Below, piece by piece: positions 1 to 16,096 of a stretch of 64,000 nt of DNA. Both the position numbers and the translations under genes were made by a program. Position 1 is the stretch's first letter, and every line of letters starts with the position of its first letter. Origin of the DNA: an uncultured SAR86 cluster bacterium (GTDB lineage: Bacteria > Pseudomonadota > Gammaproteobacteria > Magnimaribacterales > D2472); the NCBI GenBank assembly GCA_902608115.1, contig CACLMT010000003.1, forward strand, positions 40,302-104,301, read 5' to 3'. The notes under the pieces were generated by a model. It had not been told where the DNA came from and made no database searches. It saw only the letters and a program-made list of their open reading frames with translations.

Positions 1-179
1 GGCACCTGCCAGTCAAAAACATTTTCTCCACTTTCAATAGCATGAACTGTTAAATCTGGTATCAGATCTTTTATATAATTAAGAGTTTTCCGGACACCTG
101 AACCAGTTAGACTTCTACAAATTGGATATAAGTCTTGAGCCCACTTGTACATATCTCGACCTTCTGAAGATTTTTTCAT
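1..179 (-). CDS. Partial CDS (N-terminal 59 codons; the gene runs off the window edge). Aminopeptidase-like domain protein (DUF4910/DUF2172-type) of a polysaccharide locus.
   Basis: Read by hand on the minus strand. The ATG at 179-177 lies 5 nt downstream of the pseI-like stop and opens MKKSSEGRDMYKWAQDLYPICRSLTGSGVRKTLNYIKDLIPDLTVHAIESGENVFDWQV..., with no stop before the edge. It is missing from the ORF track because it is truncated. The family assignment is from memory of similar N-termini. Confidence 0.45.
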   Translation of the reverse strand, partial: MKKSSEGRDMYKWAQDLYPICRSLTGSGVRKTLNYIKDLIPDLTVHAIESGENVFDWQV

Positions 180-184
180 ATTAT

Positions 185-1249
185 TTAAATAATTGGTTTT
201 TCTAGGGATTGATTTTTGACTGGGGTATTTTTTAAAACATCATGTTTAATCTTTTGTCCAATAATGTCTTTTAAATATTTTGGTGGAATTCCAAATCCAG
301 GCCTAACACTTCTTACAGCATCCTCTGAAATGATATCACCAGACTTCATATCTTTAACAAAATATAAAGATCTCCTGAACTGAACATTTGCTTCTTCGCT
401 AGATTTTCTAGAAAAATTTATATCCCCTAAAGCGCTCCAAGCAACATTAGCTCCTTTGCATAACTCTGCCATTTCAGATGGCTCTAAAGAGAAACTATCA
501 TCTGGGCCACCGCCTTTTCGATCAAGTGTGAAATGCTTCTCAATGATAGAGGCGCCAAGAGCTACGCTTGCAATTGCAGTATTATTATCTAATGTATGAT
601 CAGATAAGCCTATAACCAATCCAAATTTATCTCTCATATGTGAAATAGTTTTTAAATTGTAATCTTCTGCTGGAGCTGGATATCCGCTAACACAATGCAG
701 AATTGCTAATTCAGAGCAGCCTCCACTTCTAGCGGCTTCAATTGCCTCTTCAATTTCTTCTTCATTAGCCATGCCAGTTGAAATTATCATTGGCTTATTG
801 GTGCTTGCAACGTATTCAATTAAAGGAAGATCAATTACTTCAAAAGAAGCAATCTTATATGCAGGCGCATTGAGATCTTCTAATAAATCTACTGCTGTAT
901 TATCAAAAGGAGAACTAAAAATTGAAATCCCAACTTTCTGTGCGTGTTTAAAAAGAATTTCGTGCCATTCCCATGGCATATGCGCTTCATCATATAAATC
1001 AAAGAGAGTTTTTCCATCCCATAATCCTCCATGGATTTGAAAATCTGAATCATTAGAATTTAATGTAATTGTTTCTGCTGTATAGGTCTGCAATTTCACC
1101 GCATCAGCGCCAGCCTTCTTTGCTTCTTCTATTATTTTCATAGCAGTTTCAATATTTCCATTGTGATTTGCTGAAAGCTCAGCAATTACATATGGAGAAT
1201 GATTCGCAGAAATAATGCGTTTATTAATTTCTATTTTAGGTTCAGACAT
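185..1249 (-). CDS. pseI: Pseudaminic acid synthase (PseI-type nonulosonic acid synthase)
   Basis: The 354-aa ORF carries IAELSANH, KLQTYT..TLNS..DF.I.GGLW, KIASFE, GLSDHT and a C-terminal SAF-like domain (RSLYFVKDMKSGD...VRSVRPG). It is collinear with Campylobacter PseI as recalled. Confidence 0.85.
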   Translation of the reverse strand: MSEPKIEINKRIISANHSPYVIAELSANHNGNIETAMKIIEEAKKAGADAVKLQTYTAETITLNSNDSDFQIHGGLWDGKTLFDLYDEAHMPWEWHEILFKHAQKVGISIFSSPFDNTAVDLLEDLNAPAYKIASFEVIDLPLIEYVASTNKPMIISTGMANEEEIEEAIEAARSGGCSELAILHCVSGYPAPAEDYNLKTISHMRDKFGLVIGLSDHTLDNNTAIASVALGASIIEKHFTLDRKGGGPDDSFSLEPSEMAELCKGANVAWSALGDINFSRKSSEEANVQFRRSLYFVKDMKSGDIISEDAVRSVRPGFGIPPKYLKDIIGQKIKHDVLKNTPVKNQSLEKPII

Positions 1250-1757
1250 CTTTATGAGCCAATTTTCTTATCCAATCTTCACGCAAAAAACTATAGCAAA
1301 TTATATCTTGATATTTTAAGCCTTGTTTAGATTGCTCTCTGAGAACTCCCTCCTCAATAAAACCCAATTTTAAATGAAAATTTACAGATGCTTTATTAGA
1401 ACTTAGAGCTTGGCCACAAACTTTATCAAGATTTAATTTTTTAAAAGCATAATCAAGAGCGCTTAACCCCAATCTTGTGCCAGTTCCTTTAGGAGAATCT
1501 GGGGCTGAATAAAACCCCCAATTAGCCGAGGAGCTTTCAGGAATTATATTAAAATTTACATATCCTAATGGAACACCATCCTCTTCATAAATCATTGGAT
1601 ATTTATTAACATCTGATTGAATAGATTTAAACCAATCAGTATGTTCAGATAAAGATATCTCATGCTGTGTTAGCATGCTTCGACGAATAGATGGATGATT
1701 TCTCCATCTTAAAACGTTATCTAAGTCACTCTCCTCCATTGGTCTAATAATGCCCAT
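1242..1757 (-). CDS. pseH: GNAT acetyltransferase, PseH-like (UDP-4-amino-4,6-dideoxy-N-acetyl-beta-L-altrosamine N-acetyltransferase)
   Basis: The 171-aa ORF begins IRPMEESDLDNVLRWRNHPSIRRSM, typical of PseH. It has a GNAT core and sits between the pseG and pseI homologs, overlapping pseI by 8 nt. Confidence 0.7.
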   Translation of the reverse strand: MGIIRPMEESDLDNVLRWRNHPSIRRSMLTQHEISLSEHTDWFKSIQSDVNKYPMIYEEDGVPLGYVNFNIIPESSSANWGFYSAPDSPKGTGTRLGLSALDYAFKKLNLDKVCGQALSSNKASVNFHLKLGFIEEGVLREQSKQGLKYQDIICYSFLREDWIRKLAHKDV

Positions 1758-1759
1758 AA

Positions 1760-2812
1760 TTACTTTTGAATATGCTCTATAACTCTTTTCGCTCCATATC
1801 CATCCACTAAATCAGCAGATACCTTGGAAGCTGCAATCAAGTTTCTTGCATTAGCAAAAAAAGCTATTGCACTTTCGAAATTATGACCATCGCTAAACTC
1901 TTGGTCTATTACAATTGAACCTTTAGATTGATGTAATGCTATTGCCCCAGGCTTTTGATTTTCAGCGAGTACTACTGAAATTGAAGGAATTCCAAGACAG
2001 CACCTTTCCCAAGCAGAAGTTCCCACCGCACCAATTACAAGGTCTTGAGTTGCAAGAAGTTCAGCCATGTGCTGAACATCTACATAAATTTTAGTTTCCC
2101 AAGGCATTTTAGATAACTGTTCCTTAACTGAAGAAATATGAGGAGATGCTCCCCCTAAGAGAATTGAAATTTTAGCATCAATACTAATAGTGCAATTATT
2201 TAACCTCTGTAATATTTTAGTTGTAATATTTTTGGGGTCACTGCCACCCATGCTAATGAGAATATTTTTTAAATCTGTATTCTCTCTATATTGAAGAGAA
2301 GCAGATCTCATGTTAATAAACTCATCTCTAATTAAACAATAATCTAAACCTGTTAATATGTTAGATTTTTCAGGTACTAGATTTACATAATCAAGATTTG
2401 TCCTTCCTAAATTTTGATCCAATAAAACATCGCAATCATGCGCCCTATTTGCAAGATCATCAATAACCATTAATTTTTTATTTTTTGATTTTAGCTTTTG
2501 CTCCCAAAGGTAATCTATAGAGTAATGATCAACAATTAACCATTTAATATTTAATGAATCAACAATTTCTTTTGTTAATGCTGAGTCCTTTTCCCAATCA
2601 AAAGATTCATTGATAGGGGTTGGTAAAATAAATAATTCATGACCCATTGAGGTAACTTTAGAATGTAAACTCTCACTCAGCTCCCTTGATACAAAACAAG
2701 AATTTAAAGACTTTTTGCTTAACATGTCTGCAATGGTTAAGCACCGCATAAGATGGCCATGGCCTATTTCAGTGGAGGCATCCACTCTAAATGCATAACT
2801 AAACACAGTCAT
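1760..2812 (-). CDS. pseG: UDP-2,4-diacetamido-2,4,6-trideoxy-beta-L-altropyranose hydrolase (PseG)
   Basis: The 350-aa ORF has the N-terminal FRVDASTEIGHGHLMRCLTIADML signature of PseG, a GT-B-like fold, and a pseC-pseG-pseH-pseI context. Confidence 0.8.
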   Translation of the reverse strand: MTVFSYAFRVDASTEIGHGHLMRCLTIADMLSKKSLNSCFVSRELSESLHSKVTSMGHELFILPTPINESFDWEKDSALTKEIVDSLNIKWLIVDHYSIDYLWEQKLKSKNKKLMVIDDLANRAHDCDVLLDQNLGRTNLDYVNLVPEKSNILTGLDYCLIRDEFINMRSASLQYRENTDLKNILISMGGSDPKNITTKILQRLNNCTISIDAKISILLGGASPHISSVKEQLSKMPWETKIYVDVQHMAELLATQDLVIGAVGTSAWERCCLGIPSISVVLAENQKPGAIALHQSKGSIVIDQEFSDGHNFESAIAFFANARNLIAASKVSADLVDGYGAKRVIEHIQK

Positions 2813-2815
2813 GAA

Positions 2816-3979
2816 TTAAACAATAATTTTTTTAAGTGTATTAATTACGTGATCTTGTTCTTCTTGGGTTAAAGTTGGATAAATCGGAATACTTAATGCT
2901 TCCCGATGATAACCTTCAGATTCAAGGCAATAACCTGCTTCAAAGCCCATTTTTTCATAAAAGGGCTGTCTATAAACAGGTATATAATGAAGATTTACCA
3001 TTATCCCAAGATCACATAACTCATCATGAATTTGAGGTTGAGTCTTTGTAATTTTCTCTAAATCAAGTCTTATAATATAAAGATGGTAGCTTGAAAATGT
3101 ATCTGGGTGTTGCCATGGTGTTCGTAAAGGCAATGAATTAAGCTCCTGATTATATCGATCTGCAATCTTATGTCTTTGTTTGATAATTTCTTTAAGCCTC
3201 TTTATTTGACTAAGACCTAAGGATGCTGCTATATCAGTCATTCTGTAGTTATAACCTAAGCGTATTTGTTGATAATTCCATATTTCATTATCAGGTCTCT
3301 CTATCATTTCTTTGGGATTTGATGTAATACCATGACTCCGATGCTGGCGTAACTTATTTGCAAGAATAGAATCATTAGTTAATGCCATTCCACCCTCACC
3401 CGTAGTAATAATTTTTACAGGATGAAAACTAAATACAGTTATATCACTATAAAAACAACTTCCTACCGGCATGTTTTTATAGGTACCTCCTATTGCATGG
3501 GATGCATCCTCAATAATCTTAAAACCGTATTTTTTACTTAAAGATTTAATCTCTTTCATCTCACAAGATTGTCCACTTAAATGAACTGGAACTAGGATTT
3601 TTGGTAAATTTTTATTTTGTTCTGCTATTTCTAATTTCTTTTTTAACTTCTCCACGCTGATGTTATAAGTTTGTGGGTCAATATCAACAAAATCTATTTT
3701 TGCACCACAATAAAGCGCGCAGTTTGAAGTGGCTACAAAAGTATTAGGGCAAGTCCATAGCCAGTCACCTGGTCCTAAATCAAGCGCCATACATGCAATA
3801 TGCAATGCTGATGTTGCACTATTAACTGCCACAGCATGCTTTGCACCAGTATACTCACATGTCACTTTTTCAAAAGATGGAACCACCGGTCCTTGAGTCA
3901 ATAAATCAGAGTTTAAAACGTCAACAACAGCAGCAACATCATCCTTTGTTATTTCTTGCCTTCCATATTTAATTTTCAT
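2816..3979 (-). CDS. pseC: PLP-dependent sugar aminotransferase, PseC-like (DegT/DnrJ/EryC1 family)
   Basis: The 387-aa ORF contains KYGRQEI...LLTQGP...NSATSALH...FVDID and SFHPVK (the PLP lysine), which is the PseC pattern. Confidence 0.85.
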   Translation of the reverse strand: MKIKYGRQEITKDDVAAVVDVLNSDLLTQGPVVPSFEKVTCEYTGAKHAVAVNSATSALHIACMALDLGPGDWLWTCPNTFVATSNCALYCGAKIDFVDIDPQTYNISVEKLKKKLEIAEQNKNLPKILVPVHLSGQSCEMKEIKSLSKKYGFKIIEDASHAIGGTYKNMPVGSCFYSDITVFSFHPVKIITTGEGGMALTNDSILANKLRQHRSHGITSNPKEMIERPDNEIWNYQQIRLGYNYRMTDIAASLGLSQIKRLKEIIKQRHKIADRYNQELNSLPLRTPWQHPDTFSSYHLYIIRLDLEKITKTQPQIHDELCDLGIMVNLHYIPVYRQPFYEKMGFEAGYCLESEGYHREALSIPIYPTLTQEEQDHVINTLKKIIV

Positions 3980-3986
3980 TACTATC

Positions 3987-4829
3987 TTAAACCTCGGTTG
4001 AATGCTCTATGGGAAGTATCCGTCCGTGGTATTGCCCCATTTCATATGCATTATTTAGAATTAATAAATTATCATTAGTTACTATTTCTGTATTTTCTCT
4101 ATATTTTAAAGAAGCTCCTGTATATGTTTCATAATCAGTACAGGGTATCCAGCAATCTACTTTAAAATCAGATATTGCCTCAAGATTAATTTGAGATGAG
4201 CAGCTTTTTAGCAACATTTCATATGGGTTTAAACCATCATCTTTACCTAATTTGGGTTGAGCATAAAAATGGCCATAAGATTTTGGTTTCATAAGATAAT
4301 CACAGCCGACTAGAATTGCTTTTTTAAAACCTAAGCTTATTGCAAGTCCAATAGCTGCATATAAACCGCCAGCTAGATAACTAAATTCCGAACATATATC
4401 TAAGTAATTTGAATGAGGATCTCTTTTCCCAAAATGATGGAGATAATGAGTATTCTTTAATGGTGCACCTAACATATTTGTAAAACTAGTAAAAAGATTT
4501 AATTCTGGAAATTTTGCAATCTCAGATCTAAATAAATTACCCATAATATTCTTTTCATATTTTTGTTTATAAGGGTTTTTGAAATAATGATAAAACGAAA
4601 AAGGTTCTGGTAATGTATAACAACAAGTATCAAGAAGATAAAAATCTTTATGCAAAACTAGATGATTAATCCCAATGGTTGGATAATTAGTAAAATGTGA
4701 AAAGTCTATGCTTTTCAAGGAAGCTCCATTTCCAAAAATATAACAAGTTTGATCGATGAAACTATTCTTAAAAAGAAAGTTTCTTCTGAACACAGGCTCT
4801 AATGCTTTATGAAGCAAATTATTCTTCAT
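3987..4829 (-). CDS. Cst-II-like (GT42 / DUF115-like) putative nonulosonic-acid (sialyl/pseudaminyl) transferase
   Basis: In this 280-aa ORF, CYIFGNGASLKSIDFSHF...IGINH parallels Cst-II IIAGNGPSLKEIDYSRL...FRCNQ. YLAGGLYAAIGLAISLGFKKAILVGCDYL parallels ITSGVYMCAVAIALGYKEIYLSGIDFY. The Cst-II sequences are recalled. The gene is embedded between the acetamidino genes and pseC. Confidence 0.55.
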   Translation of the reverse strand: MKNNLLHKALEPVFRRNFLFKNSFIDQTCYIFGNGASLKSIDFSHFTNYPTIGINHLVLHKDFYLLDTCCYTLPEPFSFYHYFKNPYKQKYEKNIMGNLFRSEIAKFPELNLFTSFTNMLGAPLKNTHYLHHFGKRDPHSNYLDICSEFSYLAGGLYAAIGLAISLGFKKAILVGCDYLMKPKSYGHFYAQPKLGKDDGLNPYEMLLKSCSSQINLEAISDFKVDCWIPCTDYETYTGASLKYRENTEIVTNDNLLILNNAYEMGQYHGRILPIEHSTEV

Positions 4830-4844
4830 GATTTGTGAGTTTAG

Positions 4845-5495
4845 CTAAATATTTAAAAAATTTTTTAACATCTGTAAACCTATTTTTCCGCTTTTTTCTG
4901 GATGAAATTGGCAACCTATAACATTCTCAGATTGAATAACTGCCGGAATAAAATTATCTCCATACAAACAACCAGCAATTAAGTGTTTAGAATCTTCTGG
5001 CTGAGCCATGTAAGAATGAACAAAATATAGGGCAGAATCTTCTTTGGTGTCTTCCAAAAGAGTTCCCTTCCAACTAACTCCTTCTTCTTTGGGTTTAACT
5101 AAATTGTTCCAACCAATATGTGGAATTTTTAATTTACTACCATCTTTAGCATGAGAAGGAACAGCTGTAACTTTACCTGATATTAAACCTAAACCGTCTG
5201 TTAAACCAAATTCTTCGCTCTCATCAAGCAAAAACTGCATCCCCAAACATATTCCTAGCAAAGGTGTACCTTTAGAAGTTAAGTCATGAATTAAAGAAAT
5301 GAAATCTCTTTTATCTAATTCAGCCATCCCATCCGCAAATGCACCAACACCTGGTAAAACCACCCTATCAGATTGAAATATTTCTTCAGGGTCTCCAGTA
5401 ACTTTTACCAATGCATCGTTATATTCTAAACCTCTCCTTACACTTAAGAGGTTCCCTACACCATAATCTATGACTGTAACAGTTTTAAGCGTCAT
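4845..5495 (-). CDS. HisH-like glutamine amidotransferase subunit (WbuY-type, sugar acetamidino formation)
   Basis: The 216-aa ORF has VIDYGVGNL, GICLGMQ (catalytic Cys) and FHPEKS. It is paired with a HisF-like gene (11-nt overlap) inside a polysaccharide locus, not a his operon. Confidence 0.8.
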   Translation of the reverse strand: MTLKTVTVIDYGVGNLLSVRRGLEYNDALVKVTGDPEEIFQSDRVVLPGVGAFADGMAELDKRDFISLIHDLTSKGTPLLGICLGMQFLLDESEEFGLTDGLGLISGKVTAVPSHAKDGSKLKIPHIGWNNLVKPKEEGVSWKGTLLEDTKEDSALYFVHSYMAQPEDSKHLIAGCLYGDNFIPAVIQSENVIGCQFHPEKSGKIGLQMLKNFLNI

Positions 5496-6258
5496 ATTTT
5501 CTTACACCTATATCTGCTTTATTTGCCTCTTCTCTGATTAAATTAATTGTTGATCGCTCATAATGCAAAATATCAGCCATCGCAATTGCATCTGCTCCAC
5601 CTTCTTCAATTGCAAATCTAATATGCTCCTCAGACCCCATACCACCACTAGCTATAACCGGAATATTAACTGCATCGGTTATTTTTTTGATTAGATCAAT
5701 ATCAAAACCTTTTCTCGTACCCTCATAATCTATAGAAGTTAGTAAGATTTCTCCGGCACCTTGCTCCACGCCTTCTTTTGCCCAATCTACGACGTCTATT
5801 CCTGTTTTTTCTCTTCCAGAATCTGTGTAAACTTCCCACATAGTATCAGACTGTTTTTTAGCCTCGATTGATAAAACCATACATTGAGAGCCAAATCTCC
5901 TGGAAACTTCATTTATGAGGCTTGGTCTTTGAACTGCAGCAGTATTAATTGCCACTTTATCTGCTCCAGCTCTTAATAACTCTCTTACATCCTCAATGTT
6001 TCGAATTCCGCCTCCGACAGTTAAAGGGACAAAAACATTTTCTGCAGTTCTAGAAACTATTTCTGGTAATTTGCTCCTACCATATAAGCTTGCAACGATA
6101 TCAATATATATTAATTCATCAGCGCCTTGCTCATAATACTTTTTAGCATGCTCTTGTGGGTCTCCAATAACCCTTAGCCCCTCTAGATGAATTCCTTTAA
6201 TAAGATTTGGTCCTTTAATATCAAGCCTCGCTATTAATCGAACTTTCTTATGCTTCAT
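5485..6258 (-). CDS. HisF-like cyclase subunit (WbuZ-type acetamidino modification protein)
   Basis: The 257-aa ORF has RLDIKG, ADELIYIDI, TVGGGIR and ASGG, the TIM-barrel HisF motifs. Its context is the amidotransferase trio. Confidence 0.8.
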   Translation of the reverse strand: MKHKKVRLIARLDIKGPNLIKGIHLEGLRVIGDPQEHAKKYYEQGADELIYIDIVASLYGRSKLPEIVSRTAENVFVPLTVGGGIRNIEDVRELLRAGADKVAINTAAVQRPSLINEVSRRFGSQCMVLSIEAKKQSDTMWEVYTDSGREKTGIDVVDWAKEGVEQGAGEILLTSIDYEGTRKGFDIDLIKKITDAVNIPVIASGGMGSEEHIRFAIEEGGADAIAMADILHYERSTINLIREEANKADIGVRKYDA

Positions 6259-6265
6259 TTTTTTC

Positions 6266-7489
6266 TTAATCTAATCTTTTTTGATCATGCCAAACTGCTC
6301 TTTTTAAATTCCACTCATCTCCTTCCTTCTCCCAAAGATGAGGAGAGCGAAATTTATCAACAGTTTCATGGAACTCATCTTCAGTTAAAGAAATATATTC
6401 CAAAAATTCCTTAAAATATTTCTTTGGAAACTCTTCATCAAATTTCTTAACTAACTGCGCCCCTTCTTCTCTTGTAATTTTGTTATTTCTAATTTCTTGT
6501 GCAGCATCATAAGTTGCTCTACCAATACCAAATTTTACAAGTGTGGTGTAGTAATGAAACATATCTATACGGTCATCTATGCTGCTATATTTAGAATAAG
6601 TTCCTTCTGTTCTCTCAGTATTAGATTGAAATCCAGTATGCTCAGTAGCATAGTAGTAACATTCCTGAGGGTCCCATTTAAGGTAATAACCAAGATAATG
6701 AACCTCTACATTCTTTGATTCAAGATAATCTGCACTGGGAGGAATATAGGGTGCAAAATCATTTAAAGTAAAGTCAGTTTCCTCCAAGATATCTCTTATC
6801 TTCTTACCACCAAGAACAATATCAAGAGGATCACTAATCGAGAAAAACTTCCTATCCATTGTAGGAATATAATTATCATCTACATTATTTCCATATTCAG
6901 CTTGATTCTCACCATACATAACTAACTCAACACCAAACTTTGCTGCCATAGATGGTCCAATAATCCTCTGTCCAACAATAAAAGGCTGGAAAGGATGTAA
7001 AAGATTAATAAATGCTTGCTTAGTTAAATATCTATGAAGTCGTCCATTAGGTGTAAGCAACATGTTATCTAAGCCGCCCACATGAATCCAATTCTCAAAA
7101 TTCTTCCATCCAATTTCAGTATACTTATGAGGCGCCCAAGTTACCGTAAGAGGATTCATACCATATTTATATTTCAGTATATGAGATGTATACGCGCTAT
7201 CTTTACCTCCACTTCCAGGAATTACAATGTCATAACTTCCATCATGTTTCCTATACTTCTCACAGAGTTCAGCAAGGGTATCCTCCCTATCTTTCCAATT
7301 AATAGAATTCGCTTTAGTTTCCTGATAATGACAAGCAGCACAAACTCCATTATTGTCAAAACCTATGGTTGATTTTTTTTCATCTTTTGAATGCTTGAAT
7401 TCAACTGTAGAGCTTGGTCGCTGATTGGAGATTACACAGCGTTTGCAAAAAATAACCTCTGAAGGCAATCCAAAGAATGTATCTGTCAT
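6266..7489 (-). CDS. N-acetyl sugar amidotransferase (PP-loop family; WbuX/PseA-like)
   Basis: The 407-aa ORF has an N-terminal Cys-rich segment (CKRCV...CAACHY) and a PP-loop-like SGGKDS motif (PGSGGKDSAY). It lies immediately upstream of the HisF/HisH-like pair, like Cj1316c-1315c-1314c as recalled. Confidence 0.75.
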   Translation of the reverse strand: MTDTFFGLPSEVIFCKRCVISNQRPSSTVEFKHSKDEKKSTIGFDNNGVCAACHYQETKANSINWKDREDTLAELCEKYRKHDGSYDIVIPGSGGKDSAYTSHILKYKYGMNPLTVTWAPHKYTEIGWKNFENWIHVGGLDNMLLTPNGRLHRYLTKQAFINLLHPFQPFIVGQRIIGPSMAAKFGVELVMYGENQAEYGNNVDDNYIPTMDRKFFSISDPLDIVLGGKKIRDILEETDFTLNDFAPYIPPSADYLESKNVEVHYLGYYLKWDPQECYYYATEHTGFQSNTERTEGTYSKYSSIDDRIDMFHYYTTLVKFGIGRATYDAAQEIRNNKITREEGAQLVKKFDEEFPKKYFKEFLEYISLTEDEFHETVDKFRSPHLWEKEGDEWNLKRAVWHDQKRLD

Positions 7490-7595
7490 TTTATAGCTCC
7501 TTAAAAAAATACATTATACGTTTTTAAAATCTCTTAAAAATAATTTATTTCTTAAACAAATTTATTGCTGAAATAATTCTTAAGGCAAATCGATT

Positions 7596-8726
7596 TTAAT
7601 TAAGATCAACAAAAAATTTCTGCTTTGGCATATTCCAAAATTCTTTGTTATTAATTATTTCATAGAACTTCTGCGCACTATTACCATCACCAAAAATCAT
7701 AGACGGTTCATAATTTTTACCTTCAACACCTTGTATTGCTTGAGAAATATCATCTAAATTAAAGTCTGAGTCAGTAATACTGGGTAAAGATACTCTATTA
7801 TTCTGTCTAGAGCCTAAATTAATAGTTGGGACCCCAAAATGAGGGGCTTCTCTAACACCAGCACTCGAATTACCAATCATAAAGTCAGCATTTTGAAGCA
7901 ATTGCAAAAAATGCTCGAATCTCATTGATGGAAAAACTCTAAAATTTTTATGATTAGATAAGTTTTCATATGCATCAAAAATTATCTCTGAGCCATGATC
8001 ATTATTTGGATAGATTACAACATAGTTCTTCTTAGATTGAATTAATCCGTCAATTAGAATCTGAATATGATTTTTTAAATTATCCAATTCTGTTGTTACA
8101 GGATGAAAAATTGCGACTGCATAATTATCATAATCAATCTCATATCGTTTTTTTACTTCTTCTAATGAGGGTAAAGAACTTGAATTCATAATATCAATAT
8201 CAGGGGAGCCAATTACATATGTAGATTCTGTTCTCTCTCCTAACTGCAACAGCCTTTTTTGAGCATCTTCATTTGCTACAAAATGAGCATGAGATAATTT
8301 TGTTACAGCATGGCGAATAAGCTCATCTACTGTTCCAGAAACCTCTCCGCCCTCTATATGACCTGTTAAGACATTATTTAATGCTCCAACGGTTGCACCA
8401 GCTAATGCCTCTACTCGATCACCATGAACAATAATTAAATCTGGATTAATTTCTCTAACATAGTCTGATAAACCTAAAATTGATTTAGCTAATACATGAT
8501 CCATTCCATCTGAAACATTCTGATTTATAAATTTATGAATATTCTGAAAATTAGCTTTTTCAACTTCTTCACATGTATAACCATATTTAGCTAGCATATG
8601 CATGCCAGTAACAAAAACATGAAGCTGAAAGTTAATGTCGTCTTGAATAATTTTCATCAAAGACTTTAACTTTCCAAAATCAGCTCTAGTACCTGTAACA
8701 AAAATTATCTTTTTTTGATTTTGCAT
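7596..8726 (-). CDS. neuC: Hydrolysing UDP-N-acetylglucosamine 2-epimerase (NeuC/LegG family)
   Basis: The 376-aa ORF has IIFVTGTRADFGKLKSLM...VTGMHM...HGDR.E, the NeuC pattern. It lies adjacent to the neuB and neuA homologs. Confidence 0.8.
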   Translation of the reverse strand: MQNQKKIIFVTGTRADFGKLKSLMKIIQDDINFQLHVFVTGMHMLAKYGYTCEEVEKANFQNIHKFINQNVSDGMDHVLAKSILGLSDYVREINPDLIIVHGDRVEALAGATVGALNNVLTGHIEGGEVSGTVDELIRHAVTKLSHAHFVANEDAQKRLLQLGERTESTYVIGSPDIDIMNSSSLPSLEEVKKRYEIDYDNYAVAIFHPVTTELDNLKNHIQILIDGLIQSKKNYVVIYPNNDHGSEIIFDAYENLSNHKNFRVFPSMRFEHFLQLLQNADFMIGNSSAGVREAPHFGVPTINLGSRQNNRVSLPSITDSDFNLDDISQAIQGVEGKNYEPSMIFGDGNSAQKFYEIINNKEFWNMPKQKFFVDLN

Positions 8727-8727
8727 A

Positions 8728-9768
8728 TCACTTCTCTACATGAGATTTTGTCAATTGTTCGCCAGCTTTTATTGGGGCAAGGATCGGTTTACCAATTAAA
8801 TTTTCATAATCAGCTGCAGAGTAATCTCCTTCGCCTGGTCTACGCACCCATATATTTTCTTCACTTAATAACTCACCCCCTTCAATATCTTTTATTGCAA
8901 CGACTGAAGCAAAAGCAAACGCTATAGTTGCCTCCTCTTCGGGTACTGGGTGTTTGTCACCACCTCTTTCGGTAAAAAGGATTTTTGATCCATGAATTAA
9001 TTCAGATAAGGAATTAGGATCCATAGAGCATACAATATCTGGTCCCGGTCTATCTAATGAATCTGTAAAATGTCTCTCAAGGATAGATGCTCCTAAGGCG
9101 ACAGCGCCAAAGCATGCCAAATTGTCTGTTGTATGATCAGACAATCCAACCACTGCATCAGGAAACTCAGATTGTAAAACTTTCATTGCTCCCAGCCTTA
9201 CTAACTCTGGAGGAGTTGGATATATGTTTGTCGTGTGTAATAAAGCATATGGAATACTGAATTTACGTAAAATTTCAACTGCTGGTCTAATTGAATCAAT
9301 TGAATTCATTCCAGTGCTTAAAATAATTGGTTTACCTGATCTTGCAATATGTTTTATTAAGGGGTAATTATTGCATTCTCCGGAACCAATTTTATATGCA
9401 GGTACATTAAATCTTTCTAATCTATCAGCTGCGGCTCGTGAAAAAGGAGTGCTAATAAAAATACAATTTCTTGATTTAATGTGCTCCATTAAAACATGCT
9501 CTTCCTCTTCATTAAGAGCGCATCTAGCCATAATTTCATATATAGAAACATCCGCGTTACCAGGAACAACTTCTTTTGCCTCAGCTGACATCTCGTCCTC
9601 AACAATATGAGTTTGATGCTTTATAATTTCAGCTCCTGCTTCAATTGCTGCATCTGCCATTGAGATTGCTAGATCTAAACTACCCTCATGATTAATACCA
9701 ATCTCAGCTATTACAACAGGAGGATGATTGTCTCCTATTATTCTGTTATTAATTTTTATTTCAGGCAT
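8728..9768 (-). CDS. neuB: NeuB/LegI-family nonulosonic acid synthase (second NulO synthase in the locus)
   Basis: The 346-aa ORF has [30 protein letters not shown] and a C-terminal SAF domain. It is clearly a separate paralog from the PseI-type ORF at 185-1249. Confidence 0.8.
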
Positions 9769-9770
9769 TT

Positions 9771-10466
9771 TTACTTCCCCATTAAAGCTTCTGCTCTCTT
9801 TAAATCTTCTTTCTCATCTATATCAATACTATCATCTTCAGTCATTACAAAAGGCATGCTTCCATTAGAAGGAAAACCTTTTCTATCAAGAAAATCTTCA
9901 ATTGAAAAAATATATATAGCACCATTAGGTATATACACATCTTGAAGGTCTTGCCTTCGAGCATTTGATAGCTTTTCTTCAAAGAGCGATTCCAACCGTC
10001 CAGAATTTGAAATAATGAATGACTTAAATGGAGATTTCCTCATATGCATAACACTGATAAGTGATTCTTCTTTATTCTCAAGTAAGCTCATTATGGCTTT
10101 ATCAATGTGTTTAGAATTACGTAAAGGTGAAGTTGGCTGAAGATAAACAATAAAATTATTCTTATGATTAATATTTTTTGGAAGAGAATCAATAAAATGA
10201 TTAACCACGTCTATTGCTGAAGATTCATCGGTAGCAAATTCTACTGGTCTTAAGAGTGTTTTTGCTTTTAATGAATCAGCCAATGATAGCACTCTTAAAT
10301 CATCTGAAGACACCCATACCTCACCTATCAAAGAAGAATGAAGGGCTGCATGAATAGTATGTTGTACCAAAGGCTTACCATTAAGATTGAGCATGTTTTT
10401 GTCTATTAAACCTTTTGAACCCTTTCTTGCAGGAATAAGGCCTATAAAGCTTGATCTAGAAGTCAT
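9771..10466 (-). CDS. neuA: Acylneuraminate (nonulosonate) cytidylyltransferase, NeuA/LegF/PseF family
   Basis: The 231-aa ORF starts with the [15 protein letters not shown] motif of CMP-NulO synthetases. Its start overlaps the upstream ABC gene stop as ATGA. Confidence 0.8.
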
Positions 10467-12256
10467 GTGATAGTTTTGTTTTGATTGATTATTTCTTCAT
10501 ATGATCCAACTCGAAGAATTTTACCCTGATCTAATTCAATAATATGTGTACAACTTTCTAACGTAGTTAATCTATGAGCTACAATAATTAAGGTTAATTC
10601 TTGACCAAGGTTTCTGATTGCATCCATTACTACTTTTTCTGTTTCGTTATCTAGAGAGCTAGTTGCTTCATCAAAAACTATAATATTTGCCTTTTTATAC
10701 AATGCTCTAGCAATACCAATTCGCTGTCTTTGCCCGCCACTTAGTCTAACCCCTCTTTCACCAACTACTTCCTGATATCCATTTGGTCTATTGTCAATAA
10801 AATCTGAAATCATTGCTTTTTTAGCCGCATCTTTCACTCTAGACATATCAATTTTTTCTGGCATAACTCCAAATGCAATATTTTCTGCTATTGATGTATC
10901 AGCTAAGAAAATACTTTGAGGGACATGGGCTACTGTCTGACGCCACGCTCTAATTAAACTATCATCAATCTTTTGGTTATCTACTATTAGTTCTCCATTC
11001 GTTGGTTCTAGCAAACCCATAATTAAATCAAGTGTTGTGCTCTTACCACTTCCAGTGCTTCCTATTAACCCAATTCTTGAACCCTTTTTAATTTCTAAAG
11101 AAATATTATCTAAAACCAATGGGGTAATTTCACTATAACGAAAACTTAAATTACGAACTGAGAACGAATCTTTAATCTCTAATGGTTGGGGCTCATTTTC
11201 ATAATAGTACTGAGGAAAAGGTTGATCAAGGAGTTCTACAACATCATTGAGGGCTGCATGACTACCAGCTACTAATGACCAATTACCATAAATCTGTTGC
11301 ATTAATGGAAGTAATCTTTGAGCTCCTAGTGCTAACATACCCAATAGGGGAAGAGCTGCTGTAACACCTCCTGATCTATTAGTTAAAGCTAATACAAAAA
11401 TCGCTATCAATACCATTCCCAATGATTCCATTGCGTATCTGGGTGCCTGATTCATAAATCTATTTTCACCATTTGCTTTCATTAAAAGAAGAATCGCTTT
11501 TCTATAAATGCCAGTATAAATACGCTGAGTAGCATCTAAAATTACATCTCTAATTGCACCTAAACCTTCCTGCAAGGCTTTAACTACTTGAGTTTGTTGA
11601 GATGCAATTGATCTGCTATTTAACTCAAATCTTTTACTAGTTAAAAATGCAATTACGACATATGCAGACCCAAAGCTTAGACCCGCAACAATGGTAACTA
11701 ATGGATCAACAATCAACATTGTCATCATAATTGACATAAATAAAAAAGAAGACGTAATAATGGAAGTAACAGCTAACAAAACACCAGTCGCAGCGGTAAC
11801 CTTTTGAGTTATCCCGCTAATAATTTCACTGCTACTCCTCTCTATATGAACTTTAAATGGCTGATACAAAGTTCTTTCATAAACTTCAATACTTAAATCT
11901 GCTCCAGTCGCATTAGAGAGCTTTATGCTAACCCACAATAATAATAACCTTAAAGATCCAGCAATAATTGCCGCTAATCCAAAAGCAACAGTCAGTGGCA
12001 ATATAAGCTGATCACCGGAATTAATACCAAAAAAAATAATAAAATCTGCAAGCCATGGTGATTGAAAAACTTGCTCCGGCTGAGTAAGAATTCCAATAAA
12101 TGGAAGTACGGCACCTAAACTTGCAACTTCGGCGACAGAAGCAACCAATGTTAATATCAATAAGAAAATAAAATGTATTTTTCTTCTCTTACCAATATGG
12201 GTCCAAAGATCTTTAAATAACTTTGTTAATGAATTGTGGTTAATATTTTTGTTCAT
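10463..12256 (-). CDS. ABC exporter, fused permease/ATPase (MsbA-type half transporter)
   Basis: The 597-aa ORF has six predicted N-terminal TM helices, Walker A GSTGSGKST, the signature LSGGQRQR and Walker B IIVFDEATS. Confidence 0.85.
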   Translation of the reverse strand: MNKNINHNSLTKLFKDLWTHIGKRRKIHFIFLLILTLVASVAEVASLGAVLPFIGILTQPEQVFQSPWLADFIIFFGINSGDQLILPLTVAFGLAAIIAGSLRLLLLWVSIKLSNATGADLSIEVYERTLYQPFKVHIERSSSEIISGITQKVTAATGVLLAVTSIITSSFLFMSIMMTMLIVDPLVTIVAGLSFGSAYVVIAFLTSKRFELNSRSIASQQTQVVKALQEGLGAIRDVILDATQRIYTGIYRKAILLLMKANGENRFMNQAPRYAMESLGMVLIAIFVLALTNRSGGVTAALPLLGMLALGAQRLLPLMQQIYGNWSLVAGSHAALNDVVELLDQPFPQYYYENEPQPLEIKDSFSVRNLSFRYSEITPLVLDNISLEIKKGSRIGLIGSTGSGKSTTLDLIMGLLEPTNGELIVDNQKIDDSLIRAWRQTVAHVPQSIFLADTSIAENIAFGVMPEKIDMSRVKDAAKKAMISDFIDNRPNGYQEVVGERGVRLSGGQRQRIGIARALYKKANIIVFDEATSSLDNETEKVVMDAIRNLGQELTLIIVAHRLTTLESCTHIIELDQGKILRVGSYEEIINQNKTIT

Positions 12257-13293
12257 TATGATCTTATCTTAAAATTCCAAGCTGAACTGCACATCTCTTC
12301 TACCCCCTTTGTTGCAATCCATTTAAATGCTTGGGCGGATCGATGCACATCTGCATAACAGCTAGCCACATCTCCAGGTCTTCTAGATGCAAATTTATAT
12401 GGGATCTTTACATTATTAACTTCTTCAAAGGTACGTATTAACTCTAAAACGCTACAACCTTTCCCAGTACCAATATTAAAAATATGAAATCCTGCTTTGG
12501 CAATTGAAGAAAGCTCAATATCTTCATGATTAATTACTTTCAACCCTATATAATTTAATGCTAATAGATGAGATTCTGATAAATCCATAATATGGACATA
12601 ATCTCTAACTCCAGTCCCATCAATTGTGTCGTAATCATTACCGTAAATATTAATATGTGGTAATTCTCCATTGGCTACATTTACAATATGCGGCATAAGA
12701 TTATTAGGTATGCCTCGAGGGTTTTCTCCAATTAGCCCACTTTCATGAGCTCCAACTGGATTAAAGTACCTAAGACAAACAATCTTCCATCCATCCTCTG
12801 CTTCTGAGATACTTCTAAGCTCTTCTTCAATTTTTAGCTTTGTTTCTGCGTATGGATTATTGCTCGATAATGGATGCTTCTCATCTATTGGCAAGTACCT
12901 TGGAATTCCATATACAGTTGCACTACTGCTATAAATTAAATTTTTAACTCCAAAAGATCTCATCACAGAAAGCAAGCATGATGTACCATTGCAGTTATTC
13001 TTAAAGTACTCATTCGGCTTAAGAATTGATTCAGATACTGATTTTAAAGCAGCCAAATGAATCACTGCATCAAAACTATGTTTTGTAAAAATTCTGTTTA
13101 ACTCGGTTTCATCAGATATATTACTTTGATAAAAAGTAATTTTCCTACCCATTAAATTCTCTAAATCATCAATAGACTCTGAGCTGCTATTGGAGAAATT
13201 ATCTATTATTACAACATCATGCCCACTATCTAGTAAAAGAAAAGCAATATGAATGCCGATATATCCAGCTCCGCCAGGTATTAAAAAATTCAT
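12256..13293 (-). CDS. galE: UDP-glucose/UDP-GlcNAc 4-epimerase (GalE family SDR)
   Basis: The 345-aa ORF has GGAGYIG, SSSATVYG and YAETK (YxxxK), and is GalE-like over its full length. Confidence 0.8.
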   Translation of the reverse strand: MNFLIPGGAGYIGIHIAFLLLDSGHDVVIIDNFSNSSSESIDDLENLMGRKITFYQSNISDETELNRIFTKHSFDAVIHLAALKSVSESILKPNEYFKNNCNGTSCLLSVMRSFGVKNLIYSSSATVYGIPRYLPIDEKHPLSSNNPYAETKLKIEEELRSISEAEDGWKIVCLRYFNPVGAHESGLIGENPRGIPNNLMPHIVNVANGELPHINIYGNDYDTIDGTGVRDYVHIMDLSESHLLALNYIGLKVINHEDIELSSIAKAGFHIFNIGTGKGCSVLELIRTFEEVNNVKIPYKFASRRPGDVASCYADVHRSAQAFKWIATKGVEEMCSSAWNFKIRS

Positions 13294-13336
13294 TTAATTA
13301 AGCTGTTTAAACTTGAGGTTATAGACTGAACTAAAA

Positions 13337-14245
13337 CTAATCTATCTTTCTAAACAAATAATGGTTTGTTAGGATAAAAAATATGCTGAGCATGAATCCT
13401 ATAAATGTTCCGGCTATACAAATCATTGACCTAACAGGCGCAGATTTCTTTTCAGGCACATAAGCTGAATCAAGAGGCCGTAGAAGATAGTCTTTACGAA
13501 CATTTGCAAGCATTTCAGTTTCAAGTTGAGATTGAATTAATGCGTTGATTGAATTTCTTATATCTGCAACCCTATATATATTAAGTTGATCATTCAAATA
13601 TGTCTTTGATCTTTGAGCCTCAGCAATATCCCTATTTCTTTCAATATTGTTTAATTCATTAATAATCAAATCTAAAAAAGACTTTGCAAAATATGGTGAT
13701 TGGTGTTCTACGCTGATTGCCAAGAACCCTGTATCAATATCAATAAAAACATCTACTATTGAAAGAAATTTTTTATACACTTCATTTTCAGAAGGTAAAT
13801 TAACTAACCATTTTTGATCAGTTGTGTCATAAATTTCCTCATCAAAATTTATAGATTTGGATGCTGGATCGTATCCCTTCAAAGCCATTAATGCCGGAAG
13901 CACCCCATCAAAAGATGAAATATGCTTTACAAAATCTCTAGATCTTATGGTGTGCTTTGCAAGATCTGCTTTTTCATCTGTACCTCCACCTGATCCTAGG
14001 TTCACTCCAGCCAAAGCCGCTATACTTCCAAATTGAGAATTAGTGGATACTGTGCTTCCACTTGAACCTGCCACTTTTAAAACTACATCTGATTTATATA
14101 TATTTGGCAAGGACAATGAATAGAAAACAGAGCTTACAGCAAAAATAAATGAGATGATTATAATTAATCTCTTCTTTTCCCATACGATTGAGAATAATTC
14201 ACTAAGATTTATTTCATCATTGCTAGAGGCGGCATTATTTGACAT
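13337..14245 (-). CDS. wzz: Polysaccharide chain-length determinant (Wzz/PCP family)
   Basis: The 302-aa ORF has the N-terminal Wzz motif (INLSELFSIVWEKKRLIIIISF..., TM1), a periplasmic coiled region and a C-terminal TM (ICIAGTFIGFMLSIFFIL). Confidence 0.7.
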   Translation of the reverse strand: MSNNAASSNDEINLSELFSIVWEKKRLIIIISFIFAVSSVFYSLSLPNIYKSDVVLKVAGSSGSTVSTNSQFGSIAALAGVNLGSGGGTDEKADLAKHTIRSRDFVKHISSFDGVLPALMALKGYDPASKSINFDEEIYDTTDQKWLVNLPSENEVYKKFLSIVDVFIDIDTGFLAISVEHQSPYFAKSFLDLIINELNNIERNRDIAEAQRSKTYLNDQLNIYRVADIRNSINALIQSQLETEMLANVRKDYLLRPLDSAYVPEKKSAPVRSMICIAGTFIGFMLSIFFILTNHYLFRKID

Positions 14246-14300
14246 TTTTTATGGCTCCTAATTAATATTTCTTATCGATTTTATCATGAACATTAATCAT

Positions 14301-14387
14301 TGGTGCCCAGAGCCGGACTTGAACCGGCACGAAGTTGCCTTCGAGGGATTTTAAGTCCCTTGTGTCTACCAATTCCACCACCTGGGC
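14301..14387 (-). tRNA. tRNA-Leu (anticodon UAA), class II with long variable arm, CCA encoded
   Basis: The reverse complement is GCCCAGGTGGTGGAATTGGTAGACACAAGGGACTTAAAATCCCTCGAAGGCAACTTCGTGCCGGTTCAAGTCCGGCTCTGGGCACCA. It has anticodon loop CTTAAAA and T-loop GGTTCAAGTCC, and is close to E. coli leuZ as recalled. Confidence 0.9.
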
Positions 14388-14411
14388 AAAATATAAAGTT
14401 TAAATCCTCCA

Positions 14412-14485
14412 TGGAGGCTGAAGCCGGAATCGAACCGGCGTAAACGGCTTTGCAGGCCGCTGCATAACCACTCTGCCATCCAGCC
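14412..14485 (-). tRNA. tRNA-Cys (anticodon GCA), CCA encoded
   Basis: The reverse complement is GGCTGGATGGCAGAGTGGTTATGCAGCGGCCTGCAAAGCCGTTTACGCCGGTTCGATTCCGGCTTCAGCCTCCA. It has anticodon loop CTGCAAA and T-loop GGTTCGATTCC. Confidence 0.9.
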
Positions 14486-14539
14486 ACTGCGTGATTATAG
14501 CAAAGCATTACTGATTTTAACTGAAACAATGGAACTTAA

Positions 14540-14887
14540 TTAAATTAAATTATTTTTATCTTCTTCCGCCTTTAAGGCTTCAATTTCAGTCTTAAGAGCC
14601 TCATATTCTTTCTCTTTTCTTTCAATAAAACTTTGCGTAATTTTCAATTTTTCACTTAAACCTGATGGGGTCAAAATATAGGCATAATTTTTTTTATTTT
14701 TAGCATTCTTGAAATTCTCAAACTTTAAAAATCCAACCTCTATCAATTGATTAACAACATAATTTACCTTTCCTAAACTGAATTTTGTTTGATCAGCAAT
14801 ACTTCTTTGATTTGAAATATCTGATTTACTAATTACATCCAAAACTTTGAATTTAGTTTCTATATCTATTTTCGTTTTATCGTTCAT
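14540..14887 (-). CDS. MarR-family EPS-associated transcriptional regulator (small winged-helix plus C-terminal coiled coil)
   Basis: The 115-aa ORF contains NQRSIADQTKFSLGKVNYVVNQLIEVGFLKFENF...NYAYILTPSGLSEK...EKEYEALKTEIEALK. This matches the MarR_EPS family pattern as recalled. Confidence 0.7.
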   Translation of the reverse strand: MNDKTKIDIETKFKVLDVISKSDISNQRSIADQTKFSLGKVNYVVNQLIEVGFLKFENFKNAKNKKNYAYILTPSGLSEKLKITQSFIERKEKEYEALKTEIEALKAEEDKNNLI

Positions 14888-14935
14888 AAAAAGTGAGGTT
14901 TGTGATTGTTTTTTAAAGAAAGTAGCTAAGAATTA

Positions 14936-14947
14936 ACAGCTACCGCA
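14936..14947 (-). promoter_or_regulatory. ops-like element (candidate RfaH recruitment site) in the locus leader
   Basis: The minus strand reads TGCGGTAGCTGT, against E. coli ops GGCGGTAGCGTG (GGCGGTAGnnTG). Positions 2-9 (GCGGTAGC) are identical. It is in the sense orientation, 82 nt downstream of the RfaH-like stop and 49 nt upstream of the MarR-EPS start. Confidence 0.35.
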
Positions 14948-14965
14948 GAACAAAGGTACTTGTTT

Positions 14966-14994
14966 GTTCAACGTTGTACTGTTCAATGTTGTAC
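14966..14994. repeat. Two tandem 14-bp near-palindromic direct repeats (candidate operator pair)
   Basis: GTTCAACGTTGTAC (14966-14979) and GTTCAATGTTGTAC (14981-14994) are 13/14 identical with a 15-bp period. The first is a palindrome apart from one mismatched pair, around an AACGTT core. They lie in the 141-bp rfaH-like/marR-like intergenic leader. Confidence 0.45.
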
Positions 14995-15028
14995 ATTGTG
15001 AAGATTTATATAAATTAGTCAAGTTTTT

Positions 15029-15532
15029 TTATTTCTTTGAGATAATACTAGTGTCTACCTGAATGGTATGAGCTCTATTTAATAAAGAAAAGAGGATTTC
15101 AACCCTTTGCTCAGATATTGTCGCTGTAATGATTGCTTCCTGATCTTTTAAAGGCCCAGTAAGAATTTCTATAAATTCTCCGATTCTGTAAGACTCTTTG
15201 TTTGGATTATTAATGGATTCAAGCTCCACTTCTTTAAAAGACTGAATGACTTGATTATCAAGAACAGGATACTTGTCTCCAAAACGGATGATCTTAATCA
15301 CTCCTCGAGTAGATCTCACTGGTTTTATCTCTAGGTTGGGTTCTGATTTAAGAAATGCATAACCAGGAAACATAGCTTGTTTTTTTATTACTGTTTTGGT
15401 CTTGGATAATAGACTGGAATGTAAAACTGGAAAATAGGGTTCATATCCCTGATTTAAAAGATTTTCCTCTGCTCTTTTTCCTTCCTTGGGCTTGATATTT
15501 AAAACAAGCCAACCAAATTGTAATAATGACAT
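15029..15532 (-). CDS. RfaH-like NusG paralog (NGN + KOW) transcription antiterminator
   Basis: The 167-aa ORF has an NGN-like N-terminus (WLVLNIKPKEGKRAEENLLNQGYEPYFPV...FPGYAFL) and a KOW-like C-terminus (IGEFIEILTGPLKDQEAIITA...RVEILFSLLNR). It is not in the secE-nusG-rplK context and sits at the head of a polysaccharide locus. Confidence 0.7.
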   Translation of the reverse strand: MSLLQFGWLVLNIKPKEGKRAEENLLNQGYEPYFPVLHSSLLSKTKTVIKKQAMFPGYAFLKSEPNLEIKPVRSTRGVIKIIRFGDKYPVLDNQVIQSFKEVELESINNPNKESYRIGEFIEILTGPLKDQEAIITATISEQRVEILFSLLNRAHTIQVDTSIISKK

Positions 15533-16093: not shown

Positions 16094-16096
16094 GTC

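Follow-up and report, generated by a model that had tools for sequence, protein, structure and literature searches.

Two types of nonulosonic acid synthase, a Legionella-type amidotransferase set and a single FnlA-type dehydratase in a glycan cluster of a SAR86 bacterium

A stretch of 64,000 nucleotides from an uncultured SAR86 cluster bacterium (contig CACLMT010000003.1 of assembly GCA_902608115.1, positions 40,302 to 104,301), referred to here as the window, was analysed for the nonulosonic acid (NulO) locus at its positions 185-10466. This locus harbours two different NulO synthases within 10 kb, one resembling the pseudaminic acid (Pse) synthase PseI and one resembling the sialic acid synthase NeuB of Neisseria meningitidis (NmNeuB). 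The original prediction for this DNA had described a neuA-neuB-neuC set next to pseC-pseG-pseH-pseI. Its coordinates and gene calls were correct, as the open reading frames (ORFs) lay where it had placed them and the assignments made here, by NCBIfam model bit scores relative to the curated cut-offs, agreed with it. Four genes at 3987-7489, between the two sets, were absent from that description. All 17 ORFs between 185 and 16093 are on the minus strand, and the other 48 kb of sequence in the window consists of housekeeping genes.

The pseudaminic set comprises PseI, the synthase (185-1249; TIGR03586, 504.6 bits, cut-off 340), PseH, a GNAT N-acetyltransferase (1242-1757; TIGR03585, 125.1 bits, cut-off 93.1), PseG, a UDP-sugar hydrolase (1760-2812; TIGR03590, 284.9 bits, cut-off 153.6) and PseC, a DegT-family aminotransferase (2816-3979; TIGR03588, 521 bits, cut-off 423.5). 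All four thus exceeded the equivalog cut-offs. The four additional genes encode a 280-aa protein resembling GT42 and MptE-like proteins (3987-4829; no NCBIfam family), a HisH-type glutaminase or WbuY (4845-5495; TIGR01855, 208.7 bits, cut-off 105.4), a HisF-type cyclase-like subunit or WbuZ (5485-6258; 300.4 bits against a cut-off of 294.6 for the hisF model TIGR00735, and 297.7 against 299.7 for the WbuZ model TIGR03572) and an N-acetyl sugar amidotransferase (NASAT) of the WbuX/PtmG family (6266-7489; TIGR03573, 372.9 bits, cut-off 203). These are followed by a NeuC-type hydrolysing 2-epimerase (7596-8726; TIGR03568, 425 bits, cut-off 236), the N. meningitidis-type NeuB (8728-9768; TIGR03569, 371 bits, below the cut-off of 399.65) and a NeuA-family CMP-nonulosonate synthetase with a CTP_transf_3 domain (9771-10466; 143.8 bits on the PseF model, which has a cut-off of 205.7). 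Next to neuA lie genes for a fused PglK/MsbA-like ABC exporter (10463-12256; below all cut-offs), a homologue of which precedes neuA in several related loci, and for a GalE-type 4-epimerase (12256-13293; TIGR01179, 372 bits, cut-off 262). With no more than 30 bits on the PseB model, the latter is not a dehydratase. A Wzz-like chain-length protein (13337-14245; match limited to the N-terminus) comes next, and the head of the cluster carries a MarR_EPS regulator (14540-14887; TIGR04176, 116 bits, cut-off 88) and an RfaH-like NusG paralogue (15029-15532; TIGR01955, 108 bits, below the cut-off of 144.5). At the opposite end, the start of a gene for a DUF4910/DUF2172 protein (1-179) continues past the window edge. 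The intergenic distances from the GalE gene to this gene after pseI were -11 to +15 bp, with the exception of a 106-bp gap that separates neuC from the amidotransferase gene; this spacing is compatible with one operon.

The end of the cluster was read on near-identical metagenome contigs, bringing the total sequence inspected to about 88 kb. One contig (L001) was 99.9% identical to window positions 1-11100 and belongs to the same 128-kb scaffold as L087, and a third contig (L171), 98.3% identical to L087, revealed the cluster end. In the public assembly collection, 135 indexed blocks contained the exact PseI protein, and all six places examined were marine-metagenome contigs with the same intact gene set. 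The genes that follow pseI encode, in order, the DUF4910 protein, an HpcH/HpaI-family protein, an AAC(3)-like N-acetyltransferase, a LIC12162-family transferase, an FkbM methyltransferase, a second LIC12162-family transferase, a GFO/IDH/MocA oxidoreductase, a GmhA-like SIS protein, a second FkbM methyltransferase, a TIGR04326 protein, a CDP-glucose 4,6-dehydratase, a 141-aa protein, a glucose-1-phosphate cytidylyltransferase, a short-chain dehydrogenase/reductase (SDR) protein, a GT2 glycosyltransferase, a Wzy_C protein, a GT1 glycosyltransferase, FnlA-FnlB-FnlC, a GT1/GT4 glycosyltransferase and a UDP-sugar dehydrogenase. Beyond it lie the housekeeping genes pdxH, infC, rpmI, rplT, pheS and pheT. 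The cluster ends 24.4 kb past pseI and window position 1, is approximately 38.4 kb long counted from the Wzz-like gene, and sits between pgsA/RfaH and pdxH-infC-rpmI-rplT-pheST, all on one strand. The 10-kb locus is therefore not stand-alone but the first third of a glycan cluster of about 38 kb, of which window positions 185-15532 are the promoter-proximal part, and which resembles an O-antigen or capsule cluster. A search for the RfaH ops element returned a single match at chance level, inside uvrC. The upstream gene order gyrA-serC-pheA-hisC-tyrA-aroA-cmk-rpsA is gammaproteobacterial and reminiscent of the O-antigen site of Pseudomonas; the host is a low-GC marine gammaproteobacterium, and its relatives are labelled SAR86. 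A WbpM/PglF-type dehydratase closing the cluster, as in Pseudomonas, was considered and rejected, since the last gene encodes the UDP-sugar dehydrogenase and pdxH and infC come after it.

In all relatives examined, the gene block from DUF4910 to TIGR04326 (L001:11071-20309 and L087:5734-8491), of unknown role, came after pseI or immediately after pseC. In three of them (L011, L012 and L028) pseC adjoins the DUF4910 gene with no pseG, pseH or pseI, and because of this adjacency PseC may also feed a second, uncharacterised sugar.

Comparison with proteins of solved structure or validated function separated the two synthases. NeuB matched the N. meningitidis synthase 1xuu over its full length with 493.9 bits and was 65.7% identical to NmNeuB, a proven Neu5Ac (N-acetylneuraminic acid) synthase. 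Its identity was 34% to the biochemically validated LegI of Legionella pneumophila, the reference genes for which were taken from the L. pneumophila lipopolysaccharide (LPS) locus, and 35.8% to the PseI of the window itself; the score against SpsE of Bacillus subtilis was 166 bits. The best solved-structure match of PseI was PseI 8h2c (299.7 bits, against 181 for NmNeuB), and PseI was 65.6% identical to PseI of Escherichia coli O165, whose O antigen, according to the reference list of PMC7685785, contains a pseudaminic acid derivative. Judged by these comparisons, the two synthases are functionally of different kinds. The original prediction had made its two-pathway reading dependent on whether the synthases fall in the same clade; as they are not of one functional type, this reading stands. 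The models TIGR03569 and TIGR03568 were dropped as discriminators between sialic acid and legionaminic acid (Leg) enzymes, because their scores cannot tell the two apart: on TIGR03569 the validated Legionella LegI scored 459 bits and NmNeuB 399, at the cut-off, and on TIGR03568 the validated Legionella LegG scored 441. Automatic names derived from these two models say nothing about which NulO is produced. Neu5Ac synthases do not form one tight clade either, NeuB of the Neu5Ac-making E. coli O145 being only 33% identical to NmNeuB, and 'Neu type' is used here in the sense of 'N. meningitidis type'. Neighbour joining of 84 NeuB-family proteins gave a tree in which classes of genomic context were not separated within the NmNeuB-type clade.

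The question of which sugar NeuC, NeuB and NeuA make was approached through the 80 NeuB relatives of highest identity in GTDB representative genomes (62-73%, many phyla). About 60 of these loci carry, next to the NmNeuB-type synthase, a NeuC that is 47-66% identical to the window NeuC. Because about 50 of the 60 have no DegT gene within 10 kb, the genomic context favours UDP-GlcNAc as the NeuC substrate, and NeuC, NeuB and NeuA would take UDP-GlcNAc to CMP-Neu5Ac. The observation in the original prediction that LegB/LegC/LegH-type genes are missing was borne out: no Leg precursor gene (retaining 4,6-dehydratase, PglE/LegC aminotransferase or PglD/LegH acetyltransferase) was found in the window or cluster, and the synthase and epimerase are not orthologous to the validated LegI and LegG (34% and 33% identity).

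The amidotransferase gene forms a module with these three genes. NASAT matched the solved structure 8wex with 535.8 bits, and together with its dedicated glutaminase/cyclase-like pair this PP-loop amidotransferase constitutes a complete NASAT system by gene content. Its subtype is that of Legionella: NASAT was 55% (full length), HisF 66% and HisH 53% identical to proteins of the Legionella LPS locus, as against 27% over 133 aa, 30% and 39% for WbuX, WbuZ and WbuY of E. coli O145. The formation of CMP-Leg5Am7Ac has been attributed to the Legionella NASAT (PMC3766260), and that of L-FucNAm to WbuX/Z/Y of O145 (PMC10607449). The order neuA-neuB-neuC-NASAT-hisF-hisH (window 4845-10466) was syntenic in 19 of the 80 NeuB-relative loci (L090, L093, L098, L103, L104, L106, L109, L113, L147, L149 and L157 among them), with NASAT 66-78% identical, and its hosts included Betaproteobacteria, Fibrobacteria, Flavobacteriaceae, Anaerolineae and other groups. 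In at least 13 of 17 such loci no DegT, PglD, FnlB or FnlC gene was present within 10 kb, and in a related contig (L032) neuB, neuC, NASAT, hisF and hisH were jointly absent. The conserved synteny, the lack of these neighbours and the joint absence point to a NulO as the acceptor of the amidotransferase, most simply the product of NeuA, NeuB and NeuC. Most likely, NASAT, with HisH and HisF as ammonia donor, would act on the CMP-sugar and change an N-acetyl to an acetamidino group.

The 280-aa protein encoded between pseC and hisH (hypothetical in GenBank) belongs to a family of proteins of about 270 aa with 436 representatives. A search of solved structures with the single sequence gave no match. 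The family profile matched the GT42 CMP-Neu5Ac sialyltransferase 9c08 (E 8.7e-6), aligned across the N-terminal GNGxS motif, in which G33, G35 and S37 are conserved; Pfam MptE-like was matched by 50 of 70 members. With an AlphaFold2 model (pLDDT 95.4), all of the top ten Foldseek hits in the PDB were Cst-I, Cst-II or Pasteurella multocida sialyltransferases, at a probability of 0.98-1.0 and a TM-score of only 0.35-0.47. The C-terminal half aligned too weakly with GT42 to map the catalytic His or the CMP-binding residues of Cst-II. The modelled protein thus resembles GT42, membership of which is not claimed, and is a candidate transferase for one of the CMP-sugars. A homologue lies after the NASAT gene in a Polynucleobacter locus.

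On the pseudaminic side, PseC was 54% identical to PseC of E. coli O165 and is the sole DegT-family aminotransferase in the cluster, with no second one in the window; PseG was 31% identical to the PseG part of an O165 protein. The original prediction had reported that the window holds neither pseB nor a second cytidylyltransferase, and had asked whether pseB and pseF lie just past its edge. A tblastn search of the 64-kb window found no PseB/FnlA-type dehydratase, second cytidylyltransferase, second DegT or PglD/NeuD-type acetyltransferase, and the whole cluster up to the pdxH-infC end, 24.4 kb further, contained no PseB, PseF, second DegT aminotransferase or PglD/NeuD-type acetyltransferase. 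The absence of a pseB gene does not equal the absence of the PseB step, as a 4,6-dehydratase/5-epimerase of the FnlA type is present in the cluster. The claim 'without pseB' thus held for the gene, in both window and cluster, and less well for the step, for which FnlA is a likely stand-in.

FnlA (L087:15071-16105, 18.6 kb past the pseI stop codon) is the only UDP-GlcNAc dehydratase of the cluster. It scored 555 bits against WbjB of Acinetobacter baumannii (4j2o), 478 against CapE of Staphylococcus aureus and 229 against PseB of Helicobacter pylori, carries the CapE-type TDK..M..K motif, and was 42% identical to PseB of O165; a close homologue reached 308 of the 408 bits required by the PseB model. 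The adjacent genes fnlA-fnlB-fnlC (L087:15071-18348) complete the UDP-L-FucNAc pathway by gene content, and the proteins were 74, 52 and 67% identical to those of E. coli O145. Their homologues in L012 (72-83% identical) scored 619 on the FnlA model (below 730) and 545 on the WbcJ model (above 500) and matched the wecB model. The NCBI name of FnlB, UDP-2-acetamido-2,6-beta-L-arabino-hexul-4-ose reductase, refers to the same intermediate as the PseC substrate. FnlA, being of the CapE/WbjB type, yields the same 4-keto sugar as PseB and hence most likely feeds PseC. FnlA would then perform the first Pse step, and its product UDP-4-keto-6-deoxy-L-AltNAc, as the substrate of PseC, would also enter the FnlB/FnlC route to L-FucNAc, so that one dehydratase would serve two branches. 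PseC, PseH, PseG and PseI would then build pseudaminic acid.

For the CMP activation, the NeuA-family protein is the sole CMP-nonulosonate synthetase of the cluster and has no paralogue in the window. Its best solved-structure match was the CMP-Neu5Ac synthetase of Vibrio cholerae (6ifd, 171.6 bits), and it was 35% identical to LegF of Legionella. Pse would be activated either by this enzyme or by the product of a gene elsewhere in the genome; one CMP-activating enzyme common to both sugars is possible. A variant locus (L032:5-3906) has neuA (67-70% identical), the 280-aa GT42-like gene, pseC, pseI and the DUF4910 gene in direct succession, with no neuB, neuC or NASAT-hisF-hisH between or after them and with no pseG or pseH. 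Because neuA there adjoins the GT42-like gene, pseC and pseI in the absence of neuB and neuC, this arrangement weakly suggests that the NeuA-type enzyme acts with the PseI product in this lineage. The suggestion is weak because the 4 kb upstream of this locus lie outside the visible sequence and because pseG and pseH are absent.

Of the three possibilities given in the original prediction (two distinct sugars, one shared CMP-activating enzyme, or a hybrid route), the synthesis of two distinct sugars was the best supported, and a hybrid route only in the form of a dehydratase shared with the L-FucNAc branch. The joint explanation, with a sialic acid branch, a pseudaminic branch and FnlA supplying the first step of the latter, is held with moderate confidence. 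A more specific form of it, in which the module makes CMP-5-acetimidoyl-neuraminic acid (CMP-Neu5Am) and the Pse branch relies on FnlA as its dehydratase and on NeuA for CMP activation, both borrowed, is put forward tentatively. Neu5Am would be a charge-neutral variant of sialic acid, one that no glycoconjugate has yet been established to contain. A 2026 preprint describes mass peaks in Campylobacter jejuni that fit CMP-Neu5Am, together with the reversion of the amidino to the acetyl group by acid hydrolysis (bioRxiv 10.64898/2026.04.20.719630).

Several observations weigh against the joint explanation. NeuC was 32-35% identical to enzymes acting on UDP-GlcNAc (NeuC of O145) and on bacillosamine (NeuC/LegG of Legionella) alike, and its matches to LegG of A. 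baumannii (212 bits) and to human GNE (222 bits) were of similar weakness; on TIGR03568 the validated Legionella LegG, with its 441 bits, stood close to the 425 bits of the window NeuC. Its substrate is thus assigned from genomic context. NmNeuB-type synthases (64-72% identical to the window NeuB) were also found beside an SDR gene, another NeuC-like gene and a CBS-nucleotidyltransferase gene, in about 10 loci besides L094, L110, L134 (from a single-cell genome of SAR86) and L145. In these the SDR is about 285-300 aa long and the NeuC-like protein only about 30% identical to the window NeuC; the arrangement resembles the leg/ptm genes of Campylobacter, and substrates may differ within the NmNeuB-type clade. 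In the literature, no documented instance was found in which FnlA supplies PseC, and FnlA lies 18.6 kb from pseI. The NeuA-family protein was 27% identical to PseF of O165, its score on the PseF model being below the cut-off as given above. Pse and Neu5Ac differ in configuration at C5, C7 and C8, for which reason a single enzyme for both would be unusual.

Four other explanations were weighed. The module could be a Legionella-like one that makes Leg5Am7Ac from UDP-diNAc-bacillosamine, the precursor being supplied by the dehydratase, aminotransferase and acetyltransferases of the cluster or by genes elsewhere. Its gene content is that of the L. pneumophila LPS locus (NASAT-HisF-HisH-NeuA-NeuB-NeuC), its amidotransferase proteins are 53-66% identical to those of Legionella, where the dehydratase is itself encoded outside the LPS locus, and some NmNeuB-type synthases occur in the Campylobacter-like Leg contexts just described. 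However, NeuB, NeuC and NeuA are only 34, 33 and 35% identical to the validated Legionella enzymes, in contrast to the 65.7% between NeuB and NmNeuB. Moreover, the cluster and window contain no PglD/NeuD-type acetyltransferase, their only DegT protein is a strong PseC, and most loci with the six-gene module have neither DegT nor PglD within 10 kb, which makes a Leg product decidedly improbable. As proposed for E. coli O145, the amidotransferase trio could convert UDP-L-FucNAc to L-FucNAm, and both NulOs would then stay N-acetylated. The cluster has every biosynthetic gene family of O145 (neuABC, the amidotransferase trio and fnlABC), and the O145 antigen contains Neu5Ac and L-FucNAm. The low and partial identity of NASAT to O145 WbuX, against a full-length match to Legionella, and the corresponding HisF values (30% against 66%) are nevertheless at odds with this explanation. 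The trio abuts fnlA in O145 but abuts neuC here, at about 24.7 kb from fnlA, and it is joined to neuABC in the 19 other loci, with fnlBC absent within 10 kb in at least 13 of 17 of them. An L-FucNAm product is therefore considered unlikely.

The other two alternatives concern the pseudaminic branch. It could be an ordinary and complete pathway whose PseB, PseF or both are encoded elsewhere on the chromosome, with FnlA serving L-FucNAc only. Split pathways are known (lpg0966 in Legionella and spsM in B. subtilis), the NeuA-family enzyme is unlike PseF, and only about 88 kb of the genome was inspected. Yet everything else for the glycan is found within one operon-like cluster of 38 kb, a separate PseB would be redundant with FnlA already giving the required intermediate, and the L032 relative retains neuA with pseC and pseI, so that this arrangement is also regarded as rather doubtful. 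That pseC-G-H-I are instead the non-functional remnant of a formerly complete pathway might be supposed from the absence of two of the six canonical pse genes. This is highly improbable, as the four ORFs are intact, tightly packed and above the equivalog cut-offs, share at least 99% identity among six metagenome contigs, and hold 75-83% identity in orthologues of diverged relatives.

The joint explanation, of two NulO branches with FnlA at the PseB step, was compared with known systems. DNA-level searches of E. coli genomes with the neuCBA and amidotransferase regions gave no matches, and the E. coli reference clusters were retrieved through fnlA instead. The O145 cluster (nnaD-neuB-neuA-neuC ... 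wbuX-hisH-hisF2-fnlA-fnlB-fnlC) shares with the present one the sialic acid trio, an amidotransferase with HisH and HisF, and fnlABC followed by a GT4 glycosyltransferase. It differs in that its NeuB, NeuC and amidotransferase trio are of other subfamilies (27-39% identity) and in having Wzx and no Pse genes, whereas the present cluster has an ABC exporter, the pse set and some 10 further, uncharacterised genes. The L. pneumophila LPS locus, which is responsible for poly-Leg5Am7Ac, similarly has NASAT-HisF-HisH adjoining NeuA-NeuB-NeuC, a dehydratase apart from the other pathway genes and a second neuB-family gene, but its NeuA, NeuB and NeuC are Leg enzymes and are followed by PglD-type and DegT genes, which are absent here. 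Relative to the canonical PseB-C-H-G-I-F pathway of H. pylori and C. jejuni (pseB-pseC-pseF-pseG-pseI in O165), PseC, PseH, PseG and PseI are present and PseB and PseF are not, the nearest proteins being FnlA (42%) and the NeuA-like enzyme (27%) in comparison with O165. Several NulO synthases in one organism or locus are also known from Leptospira interrogans and C. jejuni; those duplicate the aminotransferase and CMP-NulO synthetase for each pathway, unlike the present cluster with one of each. A PseB that is replaced or encoded elsewhere has precedents in Pen/Pal of Bacillus thuringiensis and in SpsM of B. subtilis, apart from spsC-G, although these are dedicated enzymes and the supplier proposed here opens another pathway, the one to L-FucNAc. 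Loci with multiple NulOs are thus already known, as is every enzyme family present. What is unusual is the provision of a single dehydratase, a single aminotransferase and a single CMP-synthetase for two NulOs and L-FucNAc, and also a Legionella-type amidotransferase set joined to a Neisseria-type sialic acid trio.

If FnlA does feed PseC, pathway-completeness rules that require pseB miss producers of pseudaminic acid, and rules that require pseF fail likewise if one NeuA-type enzyme serves both sugars; environmental surveys would then undercount these sugars. An acetamidino sialic acid, if made, could easily be overlooked, since acid hydrolysis restores the N-acetyl group (bioRxiv 10.64898/2026.04.20.719630). 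The organism is recurrent across marine metagenomes, and its surface sugars could plausibly determine how phages and grazers recognise it in the ocean.

Three further features of the window were noted. The ribosomal protein S1 of E. coli has 557 aa and six domains; the S1 gene of the window (20579-21886) encodes 435 aa, a length also annotated in the GenBank metagenome-assembled genome, with three S1-domain stretches above the Pfam threshold. Two overlapping ORFs at 40201-41560, between aroG and an RND efflux operon, encode DnaT DNA-binding and lambda-P-like replication domains, and no other phage genes were seen. The G+C content was 28.8% at 16001-18000 (uvrC/pgi), compared with 32-35% around it, and that of the glycan cluster (33-35%) was of the same composition as its flanks.

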